Shown: in pieces, positions 1 to 40,939 of the stretch
Layout: the number at the start of each line of letters is the position of its first letter
Position numbering within the stretch: the first letter of the stretch is position 1
From: a virus
Taxonomy: Duplodnaviria; Caudoviricetes
Length of the DNA: 40,939 nt
Strand: one strand, 5' to 3'
Virus record (IMG/VR): IMGVR_UViG_3300030106_003405
Location: 1-40,939 of that record
Translations under genes and position numbers: made by a program
The notes under the pieces: generated by a model
Database searches by the model: none
What the model was told of the DNA's origin: nothing
Seen by the model: only the letters and a program-made list of their open reading frames with translations

Positions 1-360
1 AGGATCAGTAGTAGTACCGTCAGGCTTATAATCATGTACTGCTACAAGACCTCCACCTTTTTCTCTTGGTACCCACTCTACATATGTTTTTCTATATCCA
101 CAAGGTATAACTTCTAAACTGTCTTTATAAAGATCGTTTGTAACAGTATTAAATATCATACCCTCGTCTGCACCATCAATGTATTTTTCATCTTTCTTCT
201 TACGTTGTGGTGAACCCGATTGTATTATAGCTAGTCTAGGAATAGTAATATCATCATTACTAATATTTTGTAATCCTTTACCAGCATTTTGTAAAATCAA
301 ATCATCTGCTATTGTAGCAATCTCTGAATTTGATTTTTTTACTATTTGCTTTTCACTCAT
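1..360 (-). CDS. Conserved phage replication-module protein, putative ssDNA-binding protein (5' part, runs off the window)
   Basis: Not in the ORF track. ATG at 360 abuts the stop of 361..945. The frame is open to position 1: MSEKQIVKK...NAGKGLQNISNDDITIPRLAIIQSGSPQRKKKDEKYIDGADEGMIFNTVT...YVEWVPREKGGGLVAVH. SSB function is inferred from recalled family context. Confidence 0.6.
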   Translation of the reverse strand, partial: MSEKQIVKKSNSEIATIADDLILQNAGKGLQNISNDDITIPRLAIIQSGSPQRKKKDEKYIDGADEGMIFNTVTNDLYKDSLEVIPCGYRKTYVEWVPREKGGGLVAVHDYKPDGTTTDP

Positions 361-945
361 TTATTTCTCCTTTCCAAGTGTTACTTTTGCTATTGATGCT
401 TCATATACATTAAATAAATCCTCTGGTAAGGTCTCACCTAATTTATATTGATCTTTAGCAAAAGCTTTCAGCGTTTGAGAATGAACAGTGCTGTTTTCGT
501 CATAAGGAATATTCTTAAAATTTTTATTAAGAACCTTTATCAACTTATCAGCTTCGTCATACTCACCTTTTGCAAAACTAACTTTAACATCGTGTTTAAT
601 TAGTCCTGCATGTCCATTTTCTTCTAACCATTTTAAAGCTTGTGATTTCTTTTCTAATGGTATAGAACAAAATATATCGTCTTTGACTTTTATTTGACTA
701 CCGTCTTTTAAATCGAAACGTGTCATTCCATTACACGCTCTCATAGCATCTGGTAGTTCTCGTTCTTCTATTTCTCTAATCTCTGCTTTCAAAGTTTTTA
801 ATTTATCTTCTTCTTTAGCAAGATTTTTTTTCTTTTCTACCAACTTGTTTCCTATTTTAGTAACTACTTCTAGTCCTACATTTGGAAGTTTTTTCTTTTT
901 ACTATGTTTTTCAACTTCGTCAAATATCCAAGTTTCTTTAGACAT
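361..945 (-). CDS. Conserved hypothetical phage protein (replication operon)
   Basis: 194-aa ORF with N-terminal coiled coil and the motifs WLEENGHAGLIKHDV and STVHSQTLKAF. AGGAG-type RBS upstream; overlaps the upstream gene. Confidence 0.75.
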   Translation of the reverse strand: MSKETWIFDEVEKHSKKKKLPNVGLEVVTKIGNKLVEKKKNLAKEEDKLKTLKAEIREIEERELPDAMRACNGMTRFDLKDGSQIKVKDDIFCSIPLEKKSQALKWLEENGHAGLIKHDVKVSFAKGEYDEADKLIKVLNKNFKNIPYDENSTVHSQTLKAFAKDQYKLGETLPEDLFNVYEASIAKVTLGKEK

Positions 946-1267
946 TGCTTTCTCCTTTCTGATACATATCTATGTTTACATTATAATAGCAACTATTTTC
1001 TCTATCCCATTTAAGTATATTTACTTTTCCATTATTTACTTCTGAAGCAATTATACATGAGATACCAATAGCAACTGGATCACCCATAGCAAGAATAAAA
1101 TCATCGTCAGAATAATCTTTTAATTTCTGACGCATCAATCTTACTACAGGAGAAGATGACAATGTAATTTGTTTACCAGGATTTAATAGTGGTATCAATT
1201 CACCATAACGTCCTGCCGCAAGTATATTTACTCTCGGATTTTCTTGCACTACATAAACTTTCGCCAT
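938..1267 (-). CDS. Conserved hypothetical phage protein
   Basis: 109-aa ORF with AAAGGAG RBS (plus strand ctccttt at about 1272-1278); motif DDFILAMGDPVAIG...LKWDR. Confidence 0.75.
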   Translation of the reverse strand: MAKVYVVQENPRVNILAAGRYGELIPLLNPGKQITLSSSPVVRLMRQKLKDYSDDDFILAMGDPVAIGISCIIASEVNNGKVNILKWDRENSCYYNVNIDMYQKGESNV

Positions 1268-1290
1268 AGTTCTCCTTTCTTAGTTTAAGT

Positions 1291-1325
1291 ATTTACTTAT
1301 AAATTAAATTCTATATAAAGTAAAT
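1291..1325. promoter_or_regulatory. Overlapping divergent sigma70-like promoters within an 8-bp inverted repeat
   Basis: Inverted repeat ATTTACTT(1291-1298)...AAGTAAAT(1318-1325). Minus strand reads TTTACT-N17-TATAAG, plus strand reads TTTACT-N16-TATAAA. Lies between divergently oriented genes. Confidence 0.55.
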
Positions 1326-1351
1326 TATTAATTAGAAAACAGAAAGAATAA

Positions 1352-2827
1352 ATGCAAGTACAATTTGTTAACGAAAAAGATTTTATTAAGTATAAGTTTA
1401 AAACTAAACCTTATAAACATCAATATGATGCATTTTTAAAATGTAAAGATAGAGATAGTTATGCTTTGTTTATGGAACAAGGTACAGGTAAGTCAAAAGT
1501 AATTATAGATAATATCGCTTATTTATTTAGAAATGGTAAAATAAATACAGCAGTAATTGCTGCACCTAAAGGTGTGTATCGTAATTGGTTAAGTTCAGAA
1601 TATAAAGTCCACATGCCTGATGATGTAAAAGAATTTACAGATATTGTTGTATGGTCTCCTACTGAAACTAAAACTAACATTGAAAATTTAACTAATTTTT
1701 TAAAACCAAATAATAATTTAAAATTTTTTATTATTAACATTGAAGCTTTATCTACAGATAAAGGAAAAAATTATTTACATAGATTATTAAATTCAAGTAA
1801 AGCATTTTTTTGTATTGATGAAAGTACAAATATAAAAAATAGAACAGCTAGAAGAACCAAAGCATGTCTTAAATTAGGACGTCTTGCAAAATTTAGACGA
1901 ATACTTACTGGTACACCAGTGACCCAAGGTCCATTAGATTTATGGTCACAAGTTAATTTTCTTGATGAATATATTTTACAAAATAGTTTTTACGCATATC
2001 GAAATACTTTTTGTGTACTAAAGAGAAGAAGAATATCTACTCATAGTTTTGACGAAATAGTAGGTTATCAAAGATTAGATCAATTACAAGAAATATTAGA
2101 TAAACATAGTTTTAGAGTTACAAAAGAAGAATGTCTTGATTTACCACCTAAAATCAAGCAAATTAGACAAATAGACATGACAAGCCCACAGAAGCTCATG
2201 TACACTCAACTTAAAAAACGTGCTATATTAGAGCTAGAACAAGAGAAATTAGTGACTGCGCCTCTTATAATCACACGAATACTACGTTTACAACAGATAT
2301 TATGTGGCTTTGTAAAGTATGATGATGGTACAGAAGAAGTAATAAAAGGACCTAATCCAAGATTAGAGGAATTATTAAATGTCTTAGAAGAAACACAAGG
2401 TGGAGTAATTATATGGGCTACCTTCAGAAGAACTATACAAATGATTAAAGAAGCTCTATCTAAAAAATATGGAGCAAGTAAGGTTGCAACTTATTATGGA
2501 GAAACAGAATCAGAAGTTAGACAAGAAATTGTAGAAAAATTTCAAAGAGGAGAAATAAAATATTTTATAGGTCAACCAAGGACAGGTGGTTATGGACTTA
2601 CATTAACAAATGCTAAAACTGTTATTTATTTTAATAACACTTATGACATGGAAGTAAGATTACAATCAGAAGATAGAGCACATAGAATAGGTCAAAAAGA
2701 TAAAGTTTTGTATATAGACTTTGTATGTCCTAAAACTTTAGATGAAAAAATTATAGAAACTTTAAGTAACAAGAAAAAATTAGCTGATCAAATAACAGGC
2801 GATAATTGGAAAGAATTATTTAGTTAG
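1352..2827 (+). CDS. SNF2-family (SF2) helicase/ATPase
   Basis: Motif I FMEQGTGKS, motif II CIDES, motif III ILTGTP, motif V TGGYGLTL, motif VI QSEDRAHRIGQ. Confidence 0.93.
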   Translation: MQVQFVNEKDFIKYKFKTKPYKHQYDAFLKCKDRDSYALFMEQGTGKSKVIIDNIAYLFRNGKINTAVIAAPKGVYRNWLSSEYKVHMPDDVKEFTDIVVWSPTETKTNIENLTNFLKPNNNLKFFIINIEALSTDKGKNYLHRLLNSSKAFFCIDESTNIKNRTARRTKACLKLGRLAKFRRILTGTPVTQGPLDLWSQVNFLDEYILQNSFYAYRNTFCVLKRRRISTHSFDEIVGYQRLDQLQEILDKHSFRVTKEECLDLPPKIKQIRQIDMTSPQKLMYTQLKKRAILELEQEKLVTAPLIITRILRLQQILCGFVKYDDGTEEVIKGPNPRLEELLNVLEETQGGVIIWATFRRTIQMIKEALSKKYGASKVATYYGETESEVRQEIVEKFQRGEIKYFIGQPRTGGYGLTLTNAKTVIYFNNTYDMEVRLQSEDRAHRIGQKDKVLYIDFVCPKTLDEKIIETLSNKKKLADQITGDNWKELFS

Positions 2828-12135: not shown

Positions 12136-12648
12136 TTAATAATAAGAGAAATTAGAATTGAAAGCTATAACTGTTTTTCTTTTTTTATTTACAGATGGCG
12201 CACTATGTAGAATATGCGCTGGAAAAGTAATTACATCTCCTTCTTTTGCTTTATAATCTAATAACTTATCTCTTATTTTTATTTGAGTTACATCTTTAGA
12301 ACTAGGTAATTCTAAAAAGTAGACATTAGCCCAATTACATTTTTCGTGGTTATGAAATACATGGTGTGCTCCATCCCAATATTGTTGATACCAAGAATTG
12401 GCTATATGCCATTGATTTGCTTTAAAGTAATCTTGCATTCTATCCATAGTTTCGTCTATTACATGTCTATAAAAATAATCTAAATACTTTCTTTCTTGTT
12501 CCATTGGTAATAACCAATCTGATCTACTATTCTGTTGAGATTGACTAAAAGGCATTTCTTCAATTAAATCTAATAATATCTTTTTATGTTTTTTATGATT
12601 TTTTACTTTTGATATTATAAAATCTACTGTTATATCTTTTATCTCCAT
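12136..12648 (-). CDS. 2OG-Fe(II) oxygenase-like protein (HxH type, TIGR02466-like)
   Basis: SWYQQY...HNH...NVYFL...GDVITFPAHILH...KTVIAFN. Confidence 0.8.
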   Translation of the reverse strand: MEIKDITVDFIISKVKNHKKHKKILLDLIEEMPFSQSQQNSRSDWLLPMEQERKYLDYFYRHVIDETMDRMQDYFKANQWHIANSWYQQYWDGAHHVFHNHEKCNWANVYFLELPSSKDVTQIKIRDKLLDYKAKEGDVITFPAHILHSAPSVNKKRKTVIAFNSNFSYY

Positions 12649-13211
12649 TTTGGTCCTGTAATAAATATGGCTATTGTTTTTCTTGTACCTTTTAAAACTG
12701 GCGTTACTTCGTGACTCATAAAGCCATCAAATAATATCATAGAACCTGGTTTTTTAAAATCTTCTATTACTTCTGGCCCTTGATGAAATAATCTTAATTG
12801 TCCACCTTCGTAAGATGTATCAGACATATTAATAAGTAAAGTACCTTTAATATCAAAATTTTTACCTTCTGGACTTCTATCTACATGCCAATTATAGTAG
12901 TCTTTTTCTTTAGATGTATAAGTCGCAAAATTTATAAGTCTTTCGTCTGATATCTTATGTATTAAATAACCAAATTCGTGAGTAATTACTTCTTCTGCAA
13001 AACCATAGACTTTTTTAAAATATGGTTTTATTTTATGCCATTCTATTAATTTAGTATTTCTTTCTTGTTTTAATCTATTACCATTACTATTACTTGCTGC
13101 GCCATCTTTTGGTTCTAGTTTAGAATAATTATAATCTATAAATTTGTTGTAAGTTTTAATTTCTTTACTTGTAAATTGTGGTGGCCAAATCCAATATCTA
13201 AGAGCACTCAT
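12639..13211 (-). CDS. 2OG-Fe(II) oxygenase (prolyl-hydroxylase/PKHD-like)
   Basis: YNWHVD...YEGGQL...GSMILF...HEVTPVLKGTR. Confidence 0.9.
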   Translation of the reverse strand: MSALRYWIWPPQFTSKEIKTYNKFIDYNYSKLEPKDGAASNSNGNRLKQERNTKLIEWHKIKPYFKKVYGFAEEVITHEFGYLIHKISDERLINFATYTSKEKDYYNWHVDRSPEGKNFDIKGTLLINMSDTSYEGGQLRLFHQGPEVIEDFKKPGSMILFDGFMSHEVTPVLKGTRKTIAIFITGPKWR

Positions 13212-13852
13212 ATTTTTAAAAAAGAATCAGAATTTTCGTTATTTATGTTTCCAATAGGTATAAAATTAAAAGCTAAAGAAAACCTAGTTTTATTACTTCT
13301 ATTAGTTAATATTTTATGATGCATTTCGCTTGGAAAAAATAAAATTAAACCTGGCTCTATTCTAAAATAATATTCTATGCTGTTGTAAACATTGTAATCT
13401 TTTGGAATTAAATTAAACATACTATTATTTCTATAATCTGTAAAACTAATATTACCTGAATTTTTAAAAGCTTGTAAATATAATACGCCACTAAACATAG
13501 AATTTGTATGCGAATGATAATTAGATTGTTGATTTGGTTTACTTTTTGTAAACCAAGAAGTGGTCATTTTAAATCTATTAGTATAACGTAATATTTCTTC
13601 TGTATAAAATTTTAATTCTTTCTCTACAATATTTTTTATAAATTTAAGTTTTTTATTTTCTAAAACTTTTTTATTTACAGAAGCTGATGTTATATTTTCT
13701 ACATTACTATTTATATTATCTTTTACACCTGCTTGTTCAAAATTATTATCTATTAGTTTCAAAATTTTATGGCAATCTAAATCCAATTTTTTTACATATA
13801 CTGGTTTAGAAAACAATGGATAAATTTCGTAATTCAAATTTTTGTATACCAA
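13208..13852 (-). CDS. 2OG-Fe(II) oxygenase-like protein (TIGR02466-like)
   Basis: SWFT...HSHTNSMFSGVLYL...GLILFFPSEMHH...RFSLAFN. Confidence 0.88.
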   Translation of the reverse strand: MVYKNLNYEIYPLFSKPVYVKKLDLDCHKILKLIDNNFEQAGVKDNINSNVENITSASVNKKVLENKKLKFIKNIVEKELKFYTEEILRYTNRFKMTTSWFTKSKPNQQSNYHSHTNSMFSGVLYLQAFKNSGNISFTDYRNNSMFNLIPKDYNVYNSIEYYFRIEPGLILFFPSEMHHKILTNRSNKTRFSLAFNFIPIGNINNENSDSFLKI

Positions 13853-14301
13853 GATGCTACAGTAAATCTGGTCCCCTCTAAAATTTCTTTAACACCGTGA
13901 TAGCGTTCATTACCATTAAATAAAAGTATTCTACCTATTACTGGTTGTATAGAAGTTTCATCTTCAAAATGTGTTTGTCCACCTTGAAAATCATGATTTA
14001 AATATATTATAGAAGCTAATACTGTTTCTCTTACAGCGTAGTCTGTATGCATTCTATGCATTGCACCTTTTGGCCATTTGACTAAATTAGAATAATTAAC
14101 TTTTGAATTATTTATTTTTTTAGATAATAAATTCATTTTTTTTCTTAGAGATAGTACAACAGGTTCTTTAAGCTTGTCTAAACTTACACAAAAAGTATCT
14201 TCGTGTTGCCACATATTTTTTTCGTATTTTTTATGTAATTTAATTAATTGTTTACACTCTTTTTCTGTTATAAAATTATCTATAATATTAATTGTCGACA
14301 T
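13834..14301 (-). CDS. 2OG-Fe(II) oxygenase (prolyl-4-hydroxylase-like)
   Basis: HTD...SIIYLNHDFQGGQTHF...GRILLF...HGVKEILEGTRF. Confidence 0.9.
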   Translation of the reverse strand: MSTINIIDNFITEKECKQLIKLHKKYEKNMWQHEDTFCVSLDKLKEPVVLSLRKKMNLLSKKINNSKVNYSNLVKWPKGAMHRMHTDYAVRETVLASIIYLNHDFQGGQTHFEDETSIQPVIGRILLFNGNERYHGVKEILEGTRFTVASWYTKI

Positions 14302-14848
14302 CGCAATCTAAATCAAAAGAGATTACCCTTCTAACTTTATCTATTGTATTAGGATTTACATAATGTAAAAGATGACCAGGAAATATAATCAATGTTCCTT
14401 CTTCACATTCAACTTTACTTAATTTTGTTTGCCCACTCATTTCATCTGACCAAGGCGCAATATAAGTTGCTGATTCATGTTTCTTATCTAAGTCTAAGTA
14501 TAATATTCCTGTATACATTGATTTACCATGATGATGTGCAACTTGATAATCATGTTTTTTATAATTTACTACCCATGAATCTGTAATGTATAATTTTTTA
14601 AAATTACATTCAGTTCCAAATAAATGTAATTCATCAGCAAAAATTTCATATATTTTTTGAGTTAATAAAGACGGTCTACCAAATCTAGTAGTATAAAAAG
14701 ATGTTAAAGGTCTTCTGTGATATTCTAAATCTTTTATATATTGTTTAATTTTATTTTTTTTAGTCTTCCAGCTTTTTGTTTTAGTAATGAAAGCATCTAT
14801 CGAAAATATTGTATGTATCATTTTTCCTCCTCTATTGTGTATATACAA
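14288..14848 (-). CDS. 2OG-Fe(II) oxygenase-like protein (TIGR02466-like)
   Basis: SWVVNY...HHH...TGILYL...EGTLIIFPGHLLHYV...RRVISFD. The true start is probably the second Met (about 14821), behind a GGAGG. Confidence 0.85.
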   Translation of the reverse strand: MYIHNRGGKMIHTIFSIDAFITKTKSWKTKKNKIKQYIKDLEYHRRPLTSFYTTRFGRPSLLTQKIYEIFADELHLFGTECNFKKLYITDSWVVNYKKHDYQVAHHHGKSMYTGILYLDLDKKHESATYIAPWSDEMSGQTKLSKVECEEGTLIIFPGHLLHYVNPNTIDKVRRVISFDLDCDVDN

Positions 14849-15423
14849 ATAATTCTTACTTCGTCATCTTTACCTGGTGAACCTGCTGCGTGGTAATTTT
14901 CTCCTGGAAATATATTGTATTTACCTTCGCTTGCTTTCATTTCTTTCAAAATTGTTTTAGGTATAAAAGGTTCATATCTATCTTTATTACTTAGCGCAGG
15001 ATTAGTTTTAGATGTTTCTTTAAATAAAAAAGTAGATCCTTTACTAAATTTATTACAATATATTATTATATCCGTATGATCAAATGTATGATCAAAATGT
15101 GGATTTGAGTATGGCTCTTTAAAATAAGTTGTTAAATTCAATGCACCTCTAAGTATTCTTTTTATTTTAATATTATGTTTTTTACAAATTTTTTCTATGA
15201 TTCCTGTAAAGAAAGAATATAATTCTGAATTAATTTTAAAACCTATATTATTTTCGTAATCATATCTTGGTAATAAAATATGACTTAAACATGGATAATT
15301 TTTTTGAAAGCCATATACTGGTTCTGGATAGTAATACCAAGGAAAATTATTATTATCAACAACTTGTTGTTTAATAAATTTTAAATCTTTTTTAGATATG
15401 TAACCTTCTTTTACTTGAACCAT
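14818..15423 (-). CDS. 2OG-Fe(II) oxygenase-like protein
   Basis: NFPWYY...PHFDH...IIIY...GSTFLF...GKYNIFPGENYHA...RII. Confidence 0.75.
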   Translation of the reverse strand: MVQVKEGYISKKDLKFIKQQVVDNNNFPWYYYPEPVYGFQKNYPCLSHILLPRYDYENNIGFKINSELYSFFTGIIEKICKKHNIKIKRILRGALNLTTYFKEPYSNPHFDHTFDHTDIIIYCNKFSKGSTFLFKETSKTNPALSNKDRYEPFIPKTILKEMKASEGKYNIFPGENYHAAGSPGKDDEVRIICIYTIEEEK

Positions 15424-15959
15424 TGTTTGTATATTTCTTTTGGATATTTTAGATGATTTGTATCGTCATATGCAACATTAGTATTTGAACCATTAATATC
15501 TACATAATGCATAAATACTTGACAACAAGTTTCTCCTTTGTAAGGTTCTCTCCAATGTTCATATCTTGGTCCTTCATAAAATATACAATCGCCAGATTTA
15601 GCACTAAAAGGTTTACCGTCCATAAATATTGGCCATTCTTCGTCTTGCCATATATTTAATGTTAAAGATATTTCGCATGCTGGTCTATCTTTATGCTTAG
15701 GTAAAGCTTGATCTTTATAATACATTCTTGTATAACTATAAGTAGGTAATAATTTTTTATTAAATGCTTTCTCTACTATGTATTTTTTAGAACATAAAAA
15801 ATAATCAGCAACAGGATCACCATATATAACACGTGCGCCTTCTATCATAGGACATGGTCTAGGTCTTGTATCCTTTTTTTTAAAAAAACAATGTTCATAA
15901 TATTCTTTTATGTTTTCAAGTTCTTCTTTTGACAAAAAATTTTTATATACTTTTATCAT
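15411..15959 (-). CDS. 2OG-Fe(II) oxygenase-like protein
   Basis: LLPTYSYTRMY...HKDRPACEISLTL...GDCIFYEG...HWR...QVFMHY. Confidence 0.82.
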   Translation of the reverse strand: MIKVYKNFLSKEELENIKEYYEHCFFKKKDTRPRPCPMIEGARVIYGDPVADYFLCSKKYIVEKAFNKKLLPTYSYTRMYYKDQALPKHKDRPACEISLTLNIWQDEEWPIFMDGKPFSAKSGDCIFYEGPRYEHWREPYKGETCCQVFMHYVDINGSNTNVAYDDTNHLKYPKEIYKQWFK

Positions 15960-16543
15960 TTATACGGTGGTCCTAAAGACCAATTAACTAACGAGTATCT
16001 AGTACCTTTAGTTACAGGTGTTATTCTATGCCAAACAAAACTTGGAAAGACTAAAATACTTCCTTGTTTTTTAAATTCAGGTACTTTGGTTGGTCTTCTA
16101 TCTTTATCTGGTCCATGAAAAGCAAAATAAAAATCTCCTCCTTCGTATTTTTTATGATCTGTTAAACTCATAACCAAAGATAGTTTTCTAATTTTACCAG
16201 TATATTCTTTAAAAGTGTTTGTACCATAAGGTTTTTCTAAACTATCAGTGTGCCAATCATAGTATTGTTTTTTTGTATATTTAGTAAGTTGAACATGTTC
16301 GTTCCAATCTACATCTAAATTCCATTTAGATTGTTTATTTGCTGCATTTATCCAAGGTGTTATTAACTCATACAACCAAGGTTCATTACTAAAACAAATA
16401 TCTGAATCTCTTTTATTTTTATCTAATCTATTGTCTTTACCTATTTTACCAGCACTAGGTCTTTTAAAAAGTTTTATAATTCCATCGCAAGTAGATTTAT
16501 CTATAACAGATTCAAAAAGCCAATATTCAAAATTATTGATCAT
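15956..16543 (-). CDS. 2OG-Fe(II) oxygenase (PKHD-like)
   Basis: QLTKY...YDWHTD...RKLSLV...YEGGDF...GSILVFPSFVWHRITPVTKGTRYSLVNW. Confidence 0.92.
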   Translation of the reverse strand: MINNFEYWLFESVIDKSTCDGIIKLFKRPSAGKIGKDNRLDKNKRDSDICFSNEPWLYELITPWINAANKQSKWNLDVDWNEHVQLTKYTKKQYYDWHTDSLEKPYGTNTFKEYTGKIRKLSLVMSLTDHKKYEGGDFYFAFHGPDKDRRPTKVPEFKKQGSILVFPSFVWHRITPVTKGTRYSLVNWSLGPPYK

Positions 16544-17124
16544 ATGTTAAAACTATAAATTATTCTTTCAGAATTAGATTTGTTTGGTGTAACATAATGT
16601 TCTACCCATGCAGGCCAAATTAAAAGCTGTCCTACTTGAGGTTTTATATAAAAATCTTTTGAATTATATTTATTAAATTCTTTGTAATGTGTTGCATAAT
16701 TATTCATTTCTGCTTGTGTATTGAAAACTAAATCACCAGAATTATCATCACATTTTATATAGTAAACACCAGAAAAAACATATGGTGGATGTTTATGCGG
16801 TTTATTAAAATCTCCTTTTTTATTTATTATAAACCAACTGTTGTGAATTACTGTATCTCCTACAATATTAAAGTCTTTTCGTGCTGTTTTTTTTACAAAA
16901 CTATTAATCTTTTCATTCAAATCGTCAACACAACTAGGAAATGGTTCAAAGTAATAAGAGCTATGCCAACCACCGTAGTTAGATGCTGTTACATCAACTG
17001 CACTCTTATCAATTTTATTTAAATATTTTATTATTTTTTTATGATCTACATCTTTTAATTGTGTAGAATATAAATCCGTTTGAAATAATGTTGTTTGTTC
17101 AAAAGATTTTTTAGTTGTTTTCAT
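16540..17124 (-). CDS. 2OG-Fe(II) oxygenase-like protein (TIGR02466-like)
   Basis: SNYGGWHS...WFIIN...NKPHKHP...FSGVYY...GQLLIWPAWVEHYV...RIIYSFN. Confidence 0.9.
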   Translation of the reverse strand: MKTTKKSFEQTTLFQTDLYSTQLKDVDHKKIIKYLNKIDKSAVDVTASNYGGWHSSYYFEPFPSCVDDLNEKINSFVKKTARKDFNIVGDTVIHNSWFIINKKGDFNKPHKHPPYVFSGVYYIKCDDNSGDLVFNTQAEMNNYATHYKEFNKYNSKDFYIKPQVGQLLIWPAWVEHYVTPNKSNSERIIYSFNI

Positions 17125-17665
17125 AGCAATACCACCCTGTTATTATATATTTAATTTCTGTTTTTGATATTTGACCTTTGTGTGTATGTGTCCATGCAGC
17201 AGGCCAAATTAAAGTATCTCCCTGATTACACTTAAAAGTTTTGTTTTGATAAAAAAATTCAGTACCAGCTTTTTTACATGTATTCAAATAAGTCATAAAA
17301 ACTAAATGTCTTGTAATATTTACGCCATTATTTTCATAATGCCATTGTTTAAAGCCTTCGTTTGGTTTATATTTTTGTATATTACAACCTTCTATCATAT
17401 ATCCCTTTTGTAATTTGTCAGAATAAATATATTTCTTTTTATATTTTCCTAAACAAAAACCTAATTCTTCAAAATATTCTTTAAGTAAAGGAGAAAGTCC
17501 ATCTGCTCCATTTAAACCTATATCAGTAGATATTTTAAAATATGGATCAGTTCGGTTGTTACCAACAACCCCGGGACTTTGTCTTTTTTTATTTTGATTG
17601 AAAAATTTGATTACTTTATCGCAAACTTCTTTTTCTATTTTATATTTACCAATAAAATTATCCAT
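17111..17665 (-). CDS. 2OG-Fe(II) oxygenase (prolyl-hydroxylase-like, HxE type)
   Basis: NIQKY...WHYE...RHLVFMTYLN...GTEF...LIWPAAWTHTHKG...KYIITGW. Confidence 0.9.
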   Translation of the reverse strand: MDNFIGKYKIEKEVCDKVIKFFNQNKKRQSPGVVGNNRTDPYFKISTDIGLNGADGLSPLLKEYFEELGFCLGKYKKKYIYSDKLQKGYMIEGCNIQKYKPNEGFKQWHYENNGVNITRHLVFMTYLNTCKKAGTEFFYQNKTFKCNQGDTLIWPAAWTHTHKGQISKTEIKYIITGWYCYENN

Positions 17666-18189
17666 TAATTTATTTTCTCTATGTTGAAATTAAAAGAAAT
17701 TGCAATTCTTTTTTTATTACTATAATTACGTGTTACAAAATGAGAAATATTAGAAGGAAATAAAATAAATTTTCCTACCTCTGGTTTTATCTTCCATCTA
17801 GAATAATTAACATCGTCTTTTTTATATTGAAAACAAAAATATCCTGATTTTGCATCACATTGTAAATAATAAACTCCAGAATAATCAGGACTTAATGTCA
17901 TATTTTCTCTTACTAAATGATCATGTAAATTTGTACTTTGATTTGGTAAATGTATCTGAGACCAAAATCTAGTTACAACAAAACTTGCTTTTAATTGTTT
18001 ACTTATTTCATCAAAAACTTTTTTCAATTCATCATTCATAGGAAAATTTAAATCTTCATTTATAGAATCAGTTTCATCTTGAGAAGCTCTTTTTCCTTTT
18101 AAAGTTATATAATCAATTAACTTTTTATTATTTATTTTTTTTAAATATCCATAATAAAAAAATAATTCGTGTAATATAATTTTATCCAT
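17665..18189 (-). CDS. 2OG-Fe(II) oxygenase-like protein (TIGR02466-like)
   Basis: FWSQIH...HDH...YSGVYYL...GKFILFPSNISHFV...RIAISFN. Confidence 0.87.
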   Translation of the reverse strand: MDKIILHELFFYYGYLKKINNKKLIDYITLKGKRASQDETDSINEDLNFPMNDELKKVFDEISKQLKASFVVTRFWSQIHLPNQSTNLHDHLVRENMTLSPDYSGVYYLQCDAKSGYFCFQYKKDDVNYSRWKIKPEVGKFILFPSNISHFVTRNYSNKKRIAISFNFNIEKIN

Positions 18190-18667
18190 TATTTTCTCCA
18201 GGCCAAAAAGGAAAACTTATAGATAATCTTTTACTTAATGGAATGCATTCATGTTGTAACTTATAAGGAATATATAACATATCTCCGGGATGAAGTATTG
18301 ATTCTCCTAAATTTTCTACTATCCATTTAGATTTACCTTTTTGTTGTACAATTAAATTATGAGCTAAATCAAAATGTTTACCAAAAGAACATGCTTCTTT
18401 TTTAAAAGACGCATAAATATGTGCATCCCAATTAACGTAATCAAACAATTTATTATTATCAATATATTCTTTTATTATTTTACAATCTAAATATTTTAAG
18501 CAATTACTTATAATTATAGATTTATTTCTAAAATTCTTTTTTCCAAATCTCTTTGACTTGTTTTCTAATATTACTTCAAAATCTTTCTCATCACAATCTT
18601 TTATGATGTTATCTAATTTTTTCCAAGTCAAAAAATTTTTTACAAAATTTCTTTCTATAAAAGGCAT
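18182..18667 (-). CDS. JmjC/cupin-4-like oxygenase
   Basis: AHIYAS...SFGKHFD...NLIVQQKGKSKW...LHPGDMLYIP...HEC...RLSISF (RoxA/YcfD-like core). Confidence 0.85.
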   Translation of the reverse strand: MPFIERNFVKNFLTWKKLDNIIKDCDEKDFEVILENKSKRFGKKNFRNKSIIISNCLKYLDCKIIKEYIDNNKLFDYVNWDAHIYASFKKEACSFGKHFDLAHNLIVQQKGKSKWIVENLGESILHPGDMLYIPYKLQHECIPLSKRLSISFPFWPGENNG

Positions 18668-36384: not shown

Positions 36385-36736
36385 CTTTTAAGTCCTCCGG
36401 TGTACTTAATTTTTTATTCAATATACCTTGAAATACTGATTGTGTAAAGGTCGGAAGCATCATTTCGCTTATAGGATTTTTATTATGGCCTGTAGACCAC
36501 GAAATACAAGGTACTCCTTTCTCGTCCCATGCTACCAAGGCATATCCTTTAATATCTACTTTATCTGAAATCTTTATACATGCATCATGAAAAGCACCTA
36601 CTACTTGATCATCTTGGATTTTATTAGCTTCTTCAGAGGTTTTTTTACGAGGTGTTACTCTCCACTTATCAAGAGTAATAATGTTTGTCTTTGCGCAATT
36701 GCTTTCGTTTTTCATAATCATCATCTTCGGGATCAT
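36377..36736 (-). CDS. Hypothetical protein
   Basis: 119-aa ORF; IKGYALVAWD; exact start uncertain because it overlaps the terL end. Confidence 0.6.
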   Translation of the reverse strand: MIPKMMIMKNESNCAKTNIITLDKWRVTPRKKTSEEANKIQDDQVVGAFHDACIKISDKVDIKGYALVAWDEKGVPCISWSTGHNKNPISEMMLPTFTQSVFQGILNKKLSTPEDLKDE

Positions 36737-38171
36737 CGGGGTGTGTTACTAAAAAACTCTCTCTGATCCTCATTAAAGCTTGTACTATTGTATCATGAAT
36801 ATCATCATGCTTTCCATATGGAAACTGAGCACATTCTTCGATTACACTCTTAGTCCAATCTTCATCCATTGTAAACACTAAACCGCCTTCGAACATTGAA
36901 GCTACGCCATGTGTTCTAGAAACTTTATCTCTTTCTGGAGTATAAGTAACAATAGGAACTCCTGATCTTCTCAAATCCTGTATAAGAGATTGACCTGAAG
37001 CTCTTTTTTCAATAAGAACTTGATCGGGCATCCACTCATAATAAGTATCTTGCGCACGTTGTCTTAAATCTGGATACTCTAATCTTTCTTTCCAAGCGTC
37101 TAATAATAAACAAGCTGCATAAGGAACATTGTTTTCATCTCTTGCTGTAAATACTCCCCATGTTGTACACGCAGAAAAGTCCGCAGATGATTTAGTACTG
37201 AATGCAGTATCATAAGATTGTACAACATAACCTAAAGTAGGAATTTTATCTCCTTCATAAATATTCCACCAATCTTTTTTAATAATAGAACCTTCTTCGT
37301 TACTAGGACGTTGTTGGTATAAAGCTTGCCATACACGTTCACCAACTGTATTTTGAATTTTTTCTAAATCTTCTTTATTGTAAGCTTCAGGCCATAAAGC
37401 ATTTCCTTTATCATCTATCGCAGGTAAATCTAAAACTTTCCAATCTTCTCCTGATTCATTTAAAATATATCCTGCAAGATCATCTTGATGCCATCTTGTT
37501 TGTATAACTATAATTTTTCCGCCAGGTTGTAATCTAGTATAAGCTACAGACTTATACCATTCTAAAAGATTTCTTCTTTGCACTTCTGATTCTGCGTCTT
37601 CTCTACCTTTTATCGGGTCATCAATAATTAATAAGTGTGCACCTCTACCAGTAATAGCACCACCTGCACCAACAGCTGAATAAGTACCACCATGTATAGT
37701 ATGAAATCTTTTAGCTGATGTACTGTCCGATCTTAAAGCAACTTGAGGAAAGACTTTATTGAAATCATCTCCTTGAACTTGGTTTCTTACTTTACGACCA
37801 AAGTCATCTGCTAATTCTTGAGCATAAGTAGATTGAATTACAAATTCGTTAGGATTGTTTCCTAAATACCACGCAGGAAAAAATTCTGAACATAACATAC
37901 TCTTACCATGTCTTGGTGGCATAAAGACTGCTAGTCTTTTAATATCACCTGATTCAAGCTTCTCTAGATTTTTTGCAATTAGTTTTATGTGCGCAGGATC
38001 CTGGTATCCCGGGTACATATGTTTTGCATATGATAATAAATTTTTACGAGCTTTAAAAGTACTTAGAAGATTGTTTAAGTGATTAATTACATCACCAGCT
38101 CTTTTATCCCTGGTCTTTTGGTAAATTTGAATAGCTGACTTTAATTTCTCTTTGATCTGTAACTCTTGCAT
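36669..38171 (-). CDS. terL: Terminase large subunit
   Basis: Walker A MPPRHGKS, GAGGAITGRGA, Walker B LLIIDDP, QTRWH.DDL, nuclease SYDTA...DFSA, IEKRASG, FPYGKHDDIHD. Confidence 0.95.
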   Translation of the reverse strand: MQELQIKEKLKSAIQIYQKTRDKRAGDVINHLNNLLSTFKARKNLLSYAKHMYPGYQDPAHIKLIAKNLEKLESGDIKRLAVFMPPRHGKSMLCSEFFPAWYLGNNPNEFVIQSTYAQELADDFGRKVRNQVQGDDFNKVFPQVALRSDSTSAKRFHTIHGGTYSAVGAGGAITGRGAHLLIIDDPIKGREDAESEVQRRNLLEWYKSVAYTRLQPGGKIIVIQTRWHQDDLAGYILNESGEDWKVLDLPAIDDKGNALWPEAYNKEDLEKIQNTVGERVWQALYQQRPSNEEGSIIKKDWWNIYEGDKIPTLGYVVQSYDTAFSTKSSADFSACTTWGVFTARDENNVPYAACLLLDAWKERLEYPDLRQRAQDTYYEWMPDQVLIEKRASGQSLIQDLRRSGVPIVTYTPERDKVSRTHGVASMFEGGLVFTMDEDWTKSVIEECAQFPYGKHDDIHDTIVQALMRIRESFLVTHPDDPEDDDYEKRKQLRKDKHYYS

Positions 38172-38961
38172 CTTGTTTCCCTGCGCCTAACCCGCCTTCC
38201 TTTTTATATATATCAAATTTTTCTTTAAGTAAAATGAAAGGGTCTGTTTTATTTGCAAGATGATCTGTAAGAAAAGTATTCTTTTGATTTATTAATCCTA
38301 GATACCAACTTATTTTCAAAGCATCTCTAAATCTAAGTTTGACCATCTGTTCGTGATGTAAGTCTCCTGGTTCTTTAGGATTACCTTCTTTGTAAATTCT
38401 AGCTCTAAAAGTATCATCATTATTATTGCCAGTAATATCTGCTCTATCGTGAATTACGTTTATATCTACATCTCTCATAATATTTAATAAGTAAGCTATC
38501 TCAGAGAGCCATGCATCATTCTGTCCATGTAAACTAATGTGATCTAATAAATAAAACCATGTTTGTGGAAAGCAGGGAAAGATACTATAAGGATGTCCTG
38601 TTTGTTCTTTGAATTTCAATAAACAAAATTCCTCTTCAAAATCTATAATTTTTTCATCCCAATTTTTTGTGCACATTAAAGCATCGTCATTGAAAAACAT
38701 TATCCATTTTCCATTTGCATATCCAGCCAAAGTATTATTATATTTATGTAAGTTTTGATAACCTATAGGATTAAATTGTAAAGCTAGTTGATTAGGATAC
38801 TTACTCTCTTTTAAAAAATTAAAAGTTTCTTCGTCATCTGTATCTACGCCAAATAAAAATTGTAACTTCTCTGGCTCTCTAGCATTATTGATTAATGAAC
38901 CTACAGCTTTTTTTAATAAAGGTATTCTTTTTCTCGTTGGTAATAATATTGATATGTTCAT
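38104..38961 (-). CDS. Glycosyltransferase family 2-like (GT-A fold)
   Basis: ISILLPTRKR, FGVDTDD, YNNTL, WIMFFNDD, QNDAWL...VIHDR. Confidence 0.8.
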   Translation of the reverse strand: MNISILLPTRKRIPLLKKAVGSLINNAREPEKLQFLFGVDTDDEETFNFLKESKYPNQLALQFNPIGYQNLHKYNNTLAGYANGKWIMFFNDDALMCTKNWDEKIIDFEEEFCLLKFKEQTGHPYSIFPCFPQTWFYLLDHISLHGQNDAWLSEIAYLLNIMRDVDINVIHDRADITGNNNDDTFRARIYKEGNPKEPGDLHHEQMVKLRFRDALKISWYLGLINQKNTFLTDHLANKTDPFILLKEKFDIYKKEGGLGAGKQDARVTDQREIKVSYSNLPKDQG

Positions 38962-39062
38962 GCTCTACCTATATACTTATAGATAGAACATAAAAACAAA
39001 AAAAGAACCCACCATCTCTCCCTGCTTGGCTACACAGAATGTGTACATCAAGCAACACCTAA

Positions 39063-39713
39063 TTACTTATCAAAATTTTTTTCTTCTATCTCGTAAAAAA
39101 ATTTATCAGTATCTTCAGTTATCCAGTCTTCGTTTTCGACATTCCAGTCGTTTGTCTGAACTTTGTAATCGGGAACTTCGTTTCTAACTGTGAACGAATT
39201 AACATTCCATAATATTCTGTTATTAGGCTGAGCAGCGAAATTACCGTTGTCAAGCTCCAATATATGAGCGCATTTATGCTCCTGAGGGATTTCAGAATGA
39301 TCTGTATCAAGTAGATTGGCATCAGGATGACACCAGTCCACAGTAAACAGATACTCACCACTATACAGTTTCTTATCTTTACCAAAATATTTTGCTCGTT
39401 GACCTTCTAGAAAAGCGTAATGAATAACGCTATGATAATAATCAAAACTATTCCACAACTCAAGTAAGTGGTTTGGCATATCTGGCACATCTTTTCTTTC
39501 CATACCTTTAGAGAAGAAGGCACAAATCGGCAGACGCCAAAACGCAGCACCATTTTCCAACATAATGTTAAATAGTATGCCACGACCTGAAATAGAGTTA
39601 AGACCAAAGATAACACAGTCTTCAGACTCTCCTTTATGTTTTTTAAGATCATATAAATACTCCTTGCGTATTTTACAATAAATTGGTGGAATGCTACTAC
39701 TTAAAAATGCCAT
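39063..39713 (-). CDS. Conserved hypothetical phage protein
   Basis: IRKEYLYD...GAAFWRLPI.AF...LELWN.F...GEYLFTVDW...EHKCAHI..LDNGNFAAQPNNR. Confidence 0.8.
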   Translation of the reverse strand: MAFLSSSIPPIYCKIRKEYLYDLKKHKGESEDCVIFGLNSISGRGILFNIMLENGAAFWRLPICAFFSKGMERKDVPDMPNHLLELWNSFDYYHSVIHYAFLEGQRAKYFGKDKKLYSGEYLFTVDWCHPDANLLDTDHSEIPQEHKCAHILELDNGNFAAQPNNRILWNVNSFTVRNEVPDYKVQTNDWNVENEDWITEDTDKFFYEIEEKNFDK

Positions 39714-39823: not shown

Positions 39824-39865
39824 AAACTTTATACGATTTTTTCTATTAAACTTAATACGATTTTT
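39824..39865. repeat. 18-bp imperfect direct repeat (24-bp period)
   Basis: AAACTTTATACGATTTTT (39824-39841) and AAACTTAATACGATTTTT (39848-39865). Confidence 0.6.
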
Positions 39866-39898
39866 AAAAAAAGAAAATTAGGAAAGTAAAAAAAGAAT

Positions 39899-39935
39899 AA
39901 AAAAAAAGCGTATCTAAATTAATAGATACGCTTTT
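39899..39935 (-). terminator. Intrinsic terminator (possibly bidirectional) closing the 128-aa gene
   Basis: AAAAGCGTATCTA-AATTAA-TAGATACGCTTTT perfect stem, with a long U-tract on the minus strand. Confidence 0.8.
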
Positions 39936-39952
39936 ATATTTTTTAAATAGTC

Positions 39953-40339
39953 TTATTTAAGATTATTTATTTTATCTTCGAAAAATTTAATATTCTCGAT
40001 TATCGAATTATCGACTTTATTATTTTTAATAAACTCTTTATTCGAGTTAATTAAATCTAAGTATAAATCTTTTTTAGATTTATCTAGATAAGAATTAATA
40101 TCTACTAATAGATTAACTTTTTTAAATCTATTATTTTTCGTAGTATCGTATTCTATATCGACTTTACGATAATCGTTATTAAAAGCTTTTTCTATCGTAT
40201 TAGAAAATTTAGCTTTTTCGTAAATATAAAAAGATTTCGTCTTATCTCTTTTATTATTTACTAATCTAAATAAAATTTTTTTATCTTTAAATTCTCTAAA
40301 AGATAAAGCGATTTTATTTTCTATTATTTTTTTACTCAT
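39953..40339 (-). CDS. 128-aa hypothetical protein with restricted dinucleotide and amino-acid alphabet (putative immediate-early gene)
   Basis: Intact ORF with its own promoter, AGAAAG RBS-like tract and terminator. No G, P, W, C, H, Q or internal M. Confidence 0.75.
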   Translation of the reverse strand: MSKKIIENKIALSFREFKDKKILFRLVNNKRDKTKSFYIYEKAKFSNTIEKAFNNDYRKVDIEYDTTKNNRFKKVNLLVDINSYLDKSKKDLYLDLINSNKEFIKNNKVDNSIIENIKFFEDKINNLK

Positions 40340-40355
40340 ATTATTTTCTACTTTC

Positions 40356-40404
40356 TAATTCTTAAAAGATTTCTATTTATTAGAAAATATAATTTTAAGA
40401 ATTA
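40356..40404 (-). other. 5'-UTR stem-loop
   Basis: 12-bp perfect arms TAATTCTTAAAA (40356-40367) and TTTTAAGAATTA (40393-40404), plus inner TTTCTA/TAGAAA. Confidence 0.6.
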
Positions 40405-40408
40405 ACGA

Positions 40409-40437
40409 ATATTAAAAAATTTTTTTATAAAAGTAAA
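40409..40437 (-). promoter_or_regulatory. Sigma70-like promoter of the 128-aa gene
   Basis: TTTACT(40432-40437)-N17-TAATAT(40409-40414) with an AT-rich upstream element. Confidence 0.6.
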
Positions 40438-40785
40438 TAAATAAATTTATGTTGTTTAGAATTATTCTAAACTGTATGTTCTTATTTTGTTCTAGGATAA
40501 AAAAACTAGATAATTTAATAATAATATTATTATCGAATAACTTATTAAACCTCTTAACATATATAAAATCATAATAACTCTTTTTTTAAATTAATAATAA
40601 TTTTATTAATATTTATTTTAAATCATTTAGATACGTTAAAATATATTTTTCTGTTTTTGAGGAAAAAGCTCTATCATCCTTTTTTTTATTTAACGTGATC
40701 CTTGCTGATCAGTGCTGAGCCCTAGCCTCAGGGATCAAGAAGGTTCAACTAGAGTCAATGATCAAGGACGGTTGCGGAATGTTGT

Positions 40786-40939
40786 TTAGTCAAGCTTGTG
40801 TTCGGTTTTGATTTGATCAAGGAACTTGCCAAGGTCTTCATCGGACATAGTGTCAAGGGTTGAGTGTTGCACTTCTTTCTTCTCCACCAAAAACCCCAAC
40901 AACTGAGATTTCAACCTTATCGCATTGACTGCTGCTGTA
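40786..40939 (-). CDS. terS: Probable terminase small subunit, C-terminal 50 aa (partial)
   Basis: Not in the ORF track. ...TAAVNAIRLKSQLLGFLVEKKEVQHSTLDTMSDEDLGKFLDQIKTEHKLD* resembles the TerS C-terminal pattern; upstream of terL on the same strand. Confidence 0.6.
   Translation of the reverse strand, partial: TAAVNAIRLKSQLLGFLVEKKEVQHSTLDTMSDEDLGKFLDQIKTEHKLD

Follow-up and report, generated by a model that had tools for sequence, protein, structure and literature searches.

In T4-like phages, whose genomes are fully glycosylated, the early genes are transcribed by the host polymerase. In T7 and T5 the first-entering genes are 0.3 (Ocr) and the pre-early genes A1 and A2, respectively. Fungal RIP combines the loss of CA/TG from a duplicated gene with a C5-methyltransferase-like protein, both copies being mutated and TA being left in excess. 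As to the modified base, all cytosine of phages RB69 and DLP3 is reported to occur in arabinosylated forms, and that report also names residues that tell the enzymes apart: in E. coli ThyA numbering, N177D stands for a cytosine substrate and L143D/E for a hydroxymethyl product, and D169N marks the 5-hydroxy-dCMP synthase of RB69/DLP3 (PMC13326640). C5-methyltransferase-fold enzymes are described as setting the dinucleotide context (GpC) of hypermodification in phage C5-MT/TET/GT clusters and CmoX (10.1101/2023.12.21.572611, PMC12783734). Furthermore, avoidance of RM sites is reported for relatives of T5 (PMC8594841), and a thymidine-type system for clades V, VIII and IX of the HTVC023P-type phages (PMC9599517).

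Our analysis revealed a locus at which a whole gene cassette is written under a two-base rule. The window, i.e. the complete stretch of 40,939 nt that was analysed (IMG/VR record IMGVR_UViG_3300030106_003405), covers 41 kb of a marine podovirus, with genes for helicase, lysis, ejection, capsid, portal and terminase and a series of small genes, most of which match 2OG-Fe oxygenases. At 39883..40449, an earlier note made by reading the letters had seen 567 nt without CC or GG in which the only CA/TG is the start codon of an ORF. Counting bore this out: CA occurs once (20.1 expected), and TG (18.3), CC (5.0) and GG (2.8) are absent, so that one site of the four banned words stands against 46 expected from composition. 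The single CA, at 40337, belongs to the start codon of the minus-strand ORF. Since the banned words form two reverse-complement pairs, the rule is that C never stands before A or C on either strand. The hand counts of about 53 C and 40 G were exact, all 40 G being preceded by A (23) or C (17), and the claimed enrichment of CG was found as well (17 observed, 3.7 expected). The rest of the window, which had been called CA/TG-rich, is not notably so (O/E just 1.06 and 1.12). Site-free runs in the zone measure 456 and 113 nt, and the next longest anywhere in the window measures 66 nt.

The zone has a GC content of 16% and no excess of TA (94 observed, 98 expected). The view that low GC alone is insufficient as a cause was upheld by four shuffle nulls, the observation falling outside the minima of all of them, and by paralogues of normal composition. 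Mononucleotide shuffles of the zone gave 46.0 +/- 4.9 sites (minimum 28 of 20000). For the ORF, with 0 sites observed, random synonymous codons at window usage gave 23.0 +/- 4.0 (minimum 8), codon-order shuffles 19.4 +/- 3.0 (minimum 8) and permutation of its own synonymous codons 12.1 +/- 2.5 (minimum 2). Low GC or amino-acid composition is thereby excluded as the cause. The protein indeed lacks G, P, W, C, H, Q and internal M, which 127 residues would do by chance with p = 3.5e-13 at window frequencies. The locus was seen in contigs of four out of four independent runs and is therefore no assembly artefact; an origin of the zone as pasted fungal RIP DNA was ruled out as well. The zone is a real, conserved and selected feature with a natural control; it is unexplained, and the mechanism considered below is plausible and unproven. 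Literature searches, including those on pelagiphages, found no description of such a zone, with most subscription papers outside their coverage.

The ORF in the zone (39953..40339, minus strand) encodes a basic protein of 128 amino acids (pI 9.7) that uses 13 amino acids after Met. It had no match in Pfam, PHROGs, NCBIfam, PDB sequences or GenBank phages, and in Atlas it matched unnamed viral clusters only. The model predicted from a 44-sequence alignment (pLDDT 93) shows a small alpha/beta core and a C-terminal helix pair. Structure searches with Foldseek PDB and VIA-align gave no match (best Z 3.8), which does not establish a new fold, and a search of Foldseek BFVD, likewise without a match, used an earlier poor model (pLDDT 65) as the query. 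A pairwise similarity to P0121 at an NPKR motif (E 0.026) was not accepted. P0121 (L081:15739-16104) is itself a basic protein of the early region of lineages A and B, with the NPKR motif and a faint likeness to the N-terminal half of the cassette protein. We infer the role given to the 128-aa protein below from its position alone.

A search for homologues of this protein yielded 1481 homologous clusters among 1516 candidates. The lineage of the window (lineage A) is represented by the best 80 of 115 confirmed viral stretches, and a second viral scan (alignment A2) returned the identical 80 contigs. Comparison of homologous cassettes, proposed in the earlier note, showed that the ban is kept in them, including those of a second lineage. 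Beyond the start codon, 43 of 62 distinct lineage-A ORFs are free of forbidden sites; one to four such sites occur in 14 and at least five in the other 5. In 55 distinct homologous zones, five relaxed zones being set aside and loci with too little flank dropped, C precedes A or C in 32 of 5362 cases, compared to 6723 of 12566 (53.5%) in the window; in the five relaxed zones the count is 66 of 481. A profile search found 41 representatives and led to lineage B, whose protein is about 45% identical to that of the window. Here 28 of 35 rows, two of which belong to lineage A by tree, lack any CA/TG and 7 have CA/TG sites, and the usual single CC encodes an invariant Pro. A third lineage (C) keeps most of the ban, with 4 CA/TG, 2 CC and 5 GG per gene. 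Among the codons of lineages B and C, CCT accounts for 30 of 31 Pro and GGA for 16 of 18 Gly, whereas the window favours GGT and CCA; a tolerated CC thus nearly always has T before it. Genomes G006 and G007 contain one such zone each. One relaxed allele (L003:4476-4862) has 13 sites and is 87% identical to the window ORF at 39953-40339 (13% differing), with neighbours, promoter and terminator nearly identical to those of the window and a backbone identity of 98-99.8%; this is an ORF-limited allele swap. An unrelated freshwater siphovirus (L119, MW202657) is depleted of CC/GG genome-wide (O/E 0.65) and has no clean zone.

A natural control is provided by a second copy of the gene, located 444-555 nt upstream in 13 of 80 loci, with a product 61-66% identical to the window protein. 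This tandem paralogue carries 34-41 forbidden sites, has normal composition and has Pro and Gln restored. Lineages B and C likewise carry a free copy, so that unconstrained tandem paralogues are found in three lineages. The protein itself therefore has no need for the ban; it is the DNA of one copy that needs it. In a quick-method tree the free copies of A and B each fall with their own lineage; long branches and composition bias keep the tree from fixing the order of events. The choice of codons is equally telling. In 58 ORFs, codons for Y, F, N, D and S that are followed by G have C as their third base in 359 of 370 cases, compared to 176 of 876 in the rest of the window's genes; ahead of A or C, these codons carry a third-position T in 1722 of 1724 cases. 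This pattern reflects selection and not loss or wear. Even the start codon is affected, since ATG, GTG and TTG are all missing from the cassette start in 16 of 80 homologues (L010, L013, L015, L020, L021, L030, L032, L038, L043, L044, L046, L048, L049, L054, L055 and L062). In all 16, two invariant in-frame codons follow the RBS, ATA at 8-9 nt and ACG at 17-18 nt, which suggests a candidate natural non-canonical start.

The edges of the ban were mapped on the homologous loci. Forbidden sites per G+C amount to 0.00-0.02 from -100 to the ATG and to 0.00 for 50 nt past the stop, as compared to 0.53 in the window; they rise to 0.12-0.28 at -125 to -300 and reach background level beyond a GATC cluster near -380. 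The DNA from the GATC cluster to the promoter is half depleted (697 sites per 2739 G+C, 0.25 vs 0.53), and none of 56 such regions is clean. In lineage A the last forbidden site lies most often 11-14 nt upstream of TTTACT, where this box was found, and sites reappear about 10-25 nt after the T tract of the terminator. With its edges at a promoter-like box and a terminator, the absolute ban therefore fits a transcription unit, the flanks of which are half depleted.

The signals of this unit had largely been proposed in the earlier note. A sigma70-like promoter candidate (TTTACT, 17 nt, TAATAT; 40409..40437, minus strand), 14 nt upstream of which the ban begins, is conserved in its box (exact TTTACT in 65 of 89 cassettes, two misassigned) but was not called by a promoter scanner. 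The TTTACT form was thought to be imposed by the ban; as the box also precedes some unconstrained paralogues, it is not forced by it. Other promoter-like sites in the genomes were checked and none of them was clean. The RBS AGAAAG (40351..40356, minus strand) is the GG-free part of AGAAAGGAG, which is seen in lineage B. The 5′ leader hairpin (40355..40405, minus strand) does fold, albeit weakly (z -2.0, 6 of 200 shuffles equally good), and the intrinsic terminator (39904..39935, minus strand) was confirmed by a terminator call and a folding z of -5.65. After the terminator follow two conserved copies of a 16-nt box (39848-39863 and 39824-39839, minus strand). At least one copy is present in 79 of 79 lineage-A loci, and the box is also found in G006 and G007, i.e. 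across lineages A and B; it is a candidate late promoter, operator or packaging/entry signal. On the other side, the GATC repeat cluster after terS (40697..40763) forms the outer edge of the depletion. The repeats have 10-nt spacing in lineage A, and TTGAGCA-type repeats occupy the same place in lineage B (upstream of L169:10001); both are candidate packaging or end signals. The proposal that the zone is first-ejected DNA found no support, the contig ends showing no sharp terminus and the DNA from the GATC cluster to the promoter being merely half depleted.

A GAAC-N7-GAAC site (40478..40492, minus strand), the only one in the window, is followed about 40 nt later by the TTTACT box. This is the form of the alphaproteobacterial LexA box (PMC3091678). 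The site occurs 120-194 nt upstream in 62 of 63 lineage-A cassettes, in 6 of 25 of lineage B and in none of 17 free copies, and spacers other than N7 were seen in 0-4 of 63 lineage-A cassettes. In roughly half of the cassettes each GAAC is followed by G, eliminating a CA. A Pelagibacter MAG has GAAC-N7-GAAC 4 nt before its own lexA; across this MAG the motif is not enriched (20 vs 23 for the reversed control), so only its place before lexA is informative. The phage carrying the box is apparently lytic. Ahead of the LexA-type box, in the half-depleted zone, lies a 26-codon hydrophobic ORF (40492..40572, minus strand) with a predicted single membrane helix. Similar ORFs of 18-26 codons were found in 66 of 88 cassettes, with ATG in 55; T-rich DNA readily yields hydrophobic frames, so position, RBS and the ATG in 55 are the better evidence for a peptide. 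Several of the 16 ATG-less loci lack an ATG in this upstream ORF, too. The conserved peptide could be a candidate exclusion or DNA-entry factor. The LexA-type box, the peptide ORF and the unconstrained tandem paralogue had all been missed in the earlier note.

From TerL (43% identical to HTVC023P-type phages) and gene order only, the phage is classified as an HTVC023P-like marine podovirus. The cassette ORF lies between terS, whose 3′ end is at 40786..40939 (minus strand), and the terL operon, a position kept in all lineages. The downstream genes, for a phrog_3704 protein, a GT2-like protein and the terminase large subunit (36669..39713, minus strand), have normal composition. No RNA polymerase or sigma factor was detected among the scanned proteins (59 window ORFs, 27 G007 ORFs). 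Complete relatives measure 61-64 kb, and the ends of G007 overlap. As to candidate hosts, one contig with the cassette falls in the bin of a Pelagibacter MAG and another in that of a Marinoscillum MAG, and the LexA-type box is suggestive of Alphaproteobacteria. Beside the tail genes, twelve small genes in tandem (12136-18667) nearly all encode 2OG-Fe(II) oxygenase or cupin-like proteins. In the relative G002, genes for a TonB-dependent receptor plug protein and for a B12-binding radical SAM protein are inserted between the lysis genes and the helicase (L082:12231-15696).

Following the suggestion in the earlier note that glycosyltransferase and methylase content be compared, we found a conserved predicted cytosine-hypermodification module in relatives, six genomes of which (G001, G003, G006, G007, G008 and G009) carry it together with the cassette on one contig. 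In G001 it is located 13-17 kb upstream of the cassette and comprises genes for a C5-methyltransferase-fold protein, a MazG-like dCTPase, a glycosyltransferase, a kinase and a thymidylate-synthase homologue, together with dCMP deaminase, PolA, UDP-glucose dehydrogenase and NAD synthetase. The gene order is kept in 32 loci that were fetched by the glycosyltransferase, which is thus present by construction, and the C5-like gene is found in 31 of them. Lineage B has the same core plus a sugar epimerase and a SAM methyltransferase, without UDP-glucose dehydrogenase and NAD synthetase, hinting at different sugars in the two lineages. In a lineage-A locus (L081:7377-9406) UDP-glucose dehydrogenase and NAD synthetase adjoin PolA. 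The contig of the window does not include the module. Its helicase and gp32-34-like genes (1..2827) lead on into the replication/cytosine-modification module in close relatives, and its first 4 kb are 86-88% identical to three module-bearing loci (L099, L100, L105), so the genome of the window phage very likely carries the module beyond its contig.

The thymidylate-synthase homologue has MilA as its best match and is a predicted dCMP hydroxymethylase of the T4 gp42/MilA type. The hydroxymethylase signature D143/D177 is present in 28 of 28 rows among the matches listed and also in G006 and G007. D169N is absent, every row listed reading RSND at 166-169; as D169 is kept, a hydroxymethyl and not a 5-hydroxy product is predicted. 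The glycosyltransferase is 24-28% identical to Straboviridae proteins. The C5-like protein matches Pfam PF00145 (E 1.9e-27) and has the Pro-Cys motif NPPC in 31 of 31 rows listed, but its glycine-rich SAM-binding motif I is aberrant, with the first Gly changed to Phe relative to M.HaeIII, and it scores below the NCBIfam dcm cut-off (59.6 of 100.65 bits). Only one match at E 1e-10 was found in GenBank phages, in the haloarchaeal virus HCTV-16. The altered SAM loop (C5-like genes L081:1198-2256 and G006 42437-43498) occurs in genomes where C5 is predicted to be already occupied. This divergent protein is a candidate for new DNA-modifying chemistry.

Our preferred explanation, held tentatively and at slightly less than an even chance, is that one unit transcribed by the host is kept clear, by selection, of a context-specific cytosine modification made by the phage itself. 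Cytosine would be replaced by 5-hydroxymethylcytosine, as the active-site signature indicates, and then glycosylated. A DNA-acting step would be specific for C[A/C]; our best guess for it is the divergent C5-methyltransferase-fold protein and our second guess the glycosyltransferase, and we infer the C[A/C] specificity from the ban alone. A bulky modification at C before A or C in virion DNA would hinder the host RNA polymerase, and the clean unit from promoter to terminator would be the one part of the incoming genome that the host can read at once. Each modified site might cost part of the read-through, which would explain the tolerance of one to three sites (ATG, essential Pro, RBS GG) and the intolerance of 35-40. 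The basic 128-aa product might then unlock the rest of the genome, with the unconstrained paralogue serving after unlocking and the host LexA tuning the unit. A bolder reading, which we consider doubtful, is that the phage locks its own genome in this way and carries the key in one recoded, LexA-tuned gene. On that reading, the C5-like protein would represent a novel enzyme type with hydroxymethylcytosine as its substrate, and the 128-aa protein would be a novel factor enabling RNA polymerase to transcribe modified DNA.

Hypermodified virion DNA was one of two options in the earlier note, and it stands in part. It gains from the module in relatives, from the same ban in homologues and from the fact that the ban follows the transcription unit, is symmetric across strands and also covers untranslated DNA. 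Four related records lack both the module genes and the zone: HTVC023P (whole), HTVC027P and 023Pt_psg01 (first 30 kb each) and DSL-LC04 (45 of 62 kb). On the other hand, no C[A/C]-specific enzyme was recognised, hydroxymethylation at the nucleotide pool has no sequence context, and the host polymerase reads fully glycosylated T4-like genomes. Together with the arabinosylated DNA of RB69 and DLP3, this means that sugar alone need not block transcription. The relaxed alleles, none of which is on a contig that also carries the module, count against the modification as well, as do MW202657, which has distant homologues of four module genes and no zone in the first 50 of 56 kb, and G009, in which the C5-like gene (L239:1130-2180) is split in two frames beside a strict cassette, although that stretch of the contig holds 10 N and an error is possible.

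The same modification might matter to another reader. A host modification-dependent defence, either a type IV nuclease or a base-excising glycosylase, would attack modified C in CA/CC, and the clean unit would survive, be expressed and encode an inhibitor or a second-step DNA-entry factor, as do T7 0.3 and the T5 pre-early genes. The ORF-limited swap of strict and relaxed alleles in near-identical phages suits such host-dependent selection, the LexA-type box would raise output upon DNA damage, the depletion spans about 850-900 nt beside terS, between the GATC cluster and the downstream boxes, and a small membrane peptide is co-located. A glycosylase would yield the same local edges as a block of transcription. 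However, the contig ends give no sharp terminus for a terminal position, half-depleted flanks with sites tolerated 11-14 nt from the promoter box would be risky with nucleases that cut at a distance, and the protein is basic and not an acidic DNA mimic. We also know of no modification-dependent defence enzyme that reads C[A/C]. While this variant taken singly is unlikely, we consider it probable that the phage's own context-specific cytosine modification lies behind the ban when the host-polymerase and host-defence variants are taken jointly.

Quite improbable, by comparison, is a structure for packaging, entry or replication, in which terminase or another phage protein would need unmodified pac or origin DNA by terS and the gene would merely lie inside. 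The terS-terL position in all lineages and the conserved GATC cluster and downstream boxes speak for it, as does the swapping of CA and CG in these boxes and in the LexA-type site between strict and relaxed lineages. However, the limits of the absolute ban are those of promoter and terminator, not of the repeats; CA/GG is plentiful within the GATC cluster, and the paralogue has its own GATC cluster yet no ban. Still further down, a very improbable local RIP-like mutation pressure would have the C5-methyltransferase-fold protein deaminate C in CA/CC of a duplicated or exposed gene. Tandem duplicates do exist, the SAM-binding loop of the enzyme is aberrant and the zone is AT-rich, but one copy only is affected and lineages without a visible duplicate are equally strict. 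Moreover, TA is not in excess, the T-to-C gains before G oppose AT bias, the reading frame is open in homologues, and divergence of the cassette is no higher than that of its neighbours in 12 of 13 pairs. A need at the level of RNA or translation, i.e. avoidance of a ribonuclease motif or of particular tRNAs, could draw on the seven lost amino acids and the extreme codon use, but is the most improbable of all, as the banned words are two reverse-complement pairs and the ban crosses codon junctions and covers DNA upstream of the presumed start site. Unforeseen causes take the remaining probability.

The locus represents a natural case in which selection acting on a two-base DNA word has reshaped a gene together with its promoter and, in some loci, the start codon, with a sister gene of normal composition serving as the control. 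The context of an undescribed DNA modification would be read from sequence alone, in an abundant and widespread uncultured group of marine phages, and the cost of genome hypermodification to a phage becomes directly testable. It also brings up a candidate for a new DNA-modifying enzyme, along with a small protein without family or fold match, and motif-free transcription units offer a simple screen for modification specificities in other viruses.

When compared to known systems, the cassette differs from fungal RIP in that one copy only is affected, TA is not in excess, the frame is open and compensating gains of C are seen. It shares with T5 and T7 a phage segment shaped by motif avoidance and a small stand-alone early-type unit with host-type signals, the early expression of the cassette being presumed. 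Here, however, the motif is a two-base word, the ban is near absolute and local, the amino-acid alphabet and start codon are rewritten, palindromes remain, the likely cause is the phage's own modification, and there is no link in sequence or fold. The order of terS, small genes, terL, GroES, 2OG-Fe oxygenases, helicase and PolA is that of HTVC023P-type phages, whereas neither the cassette protein nor the module or the zone was found in the isolates of this type that were examined. With the hypermodifying phages T4, RB69, DLP3 and RL38J1, for which no motif-free gene was found described in the literature searched, the module shares the trio of glycosyltransferase, kinase and thymidylate-synthase homologue as well as the dCTPase-like and dCMP deaminase genes; it differs by including a divergent C5-methyltransferase-fold gene and by a predicted hydroxymethyl product (D169 kept). 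No TET or CmoA was seen in the module, and in comparison to the C5-MT/TET/GT clusters and CmoX, the context here would be C[A/C] and not GpC, with the base predicted to be made at the nucleotide pool.
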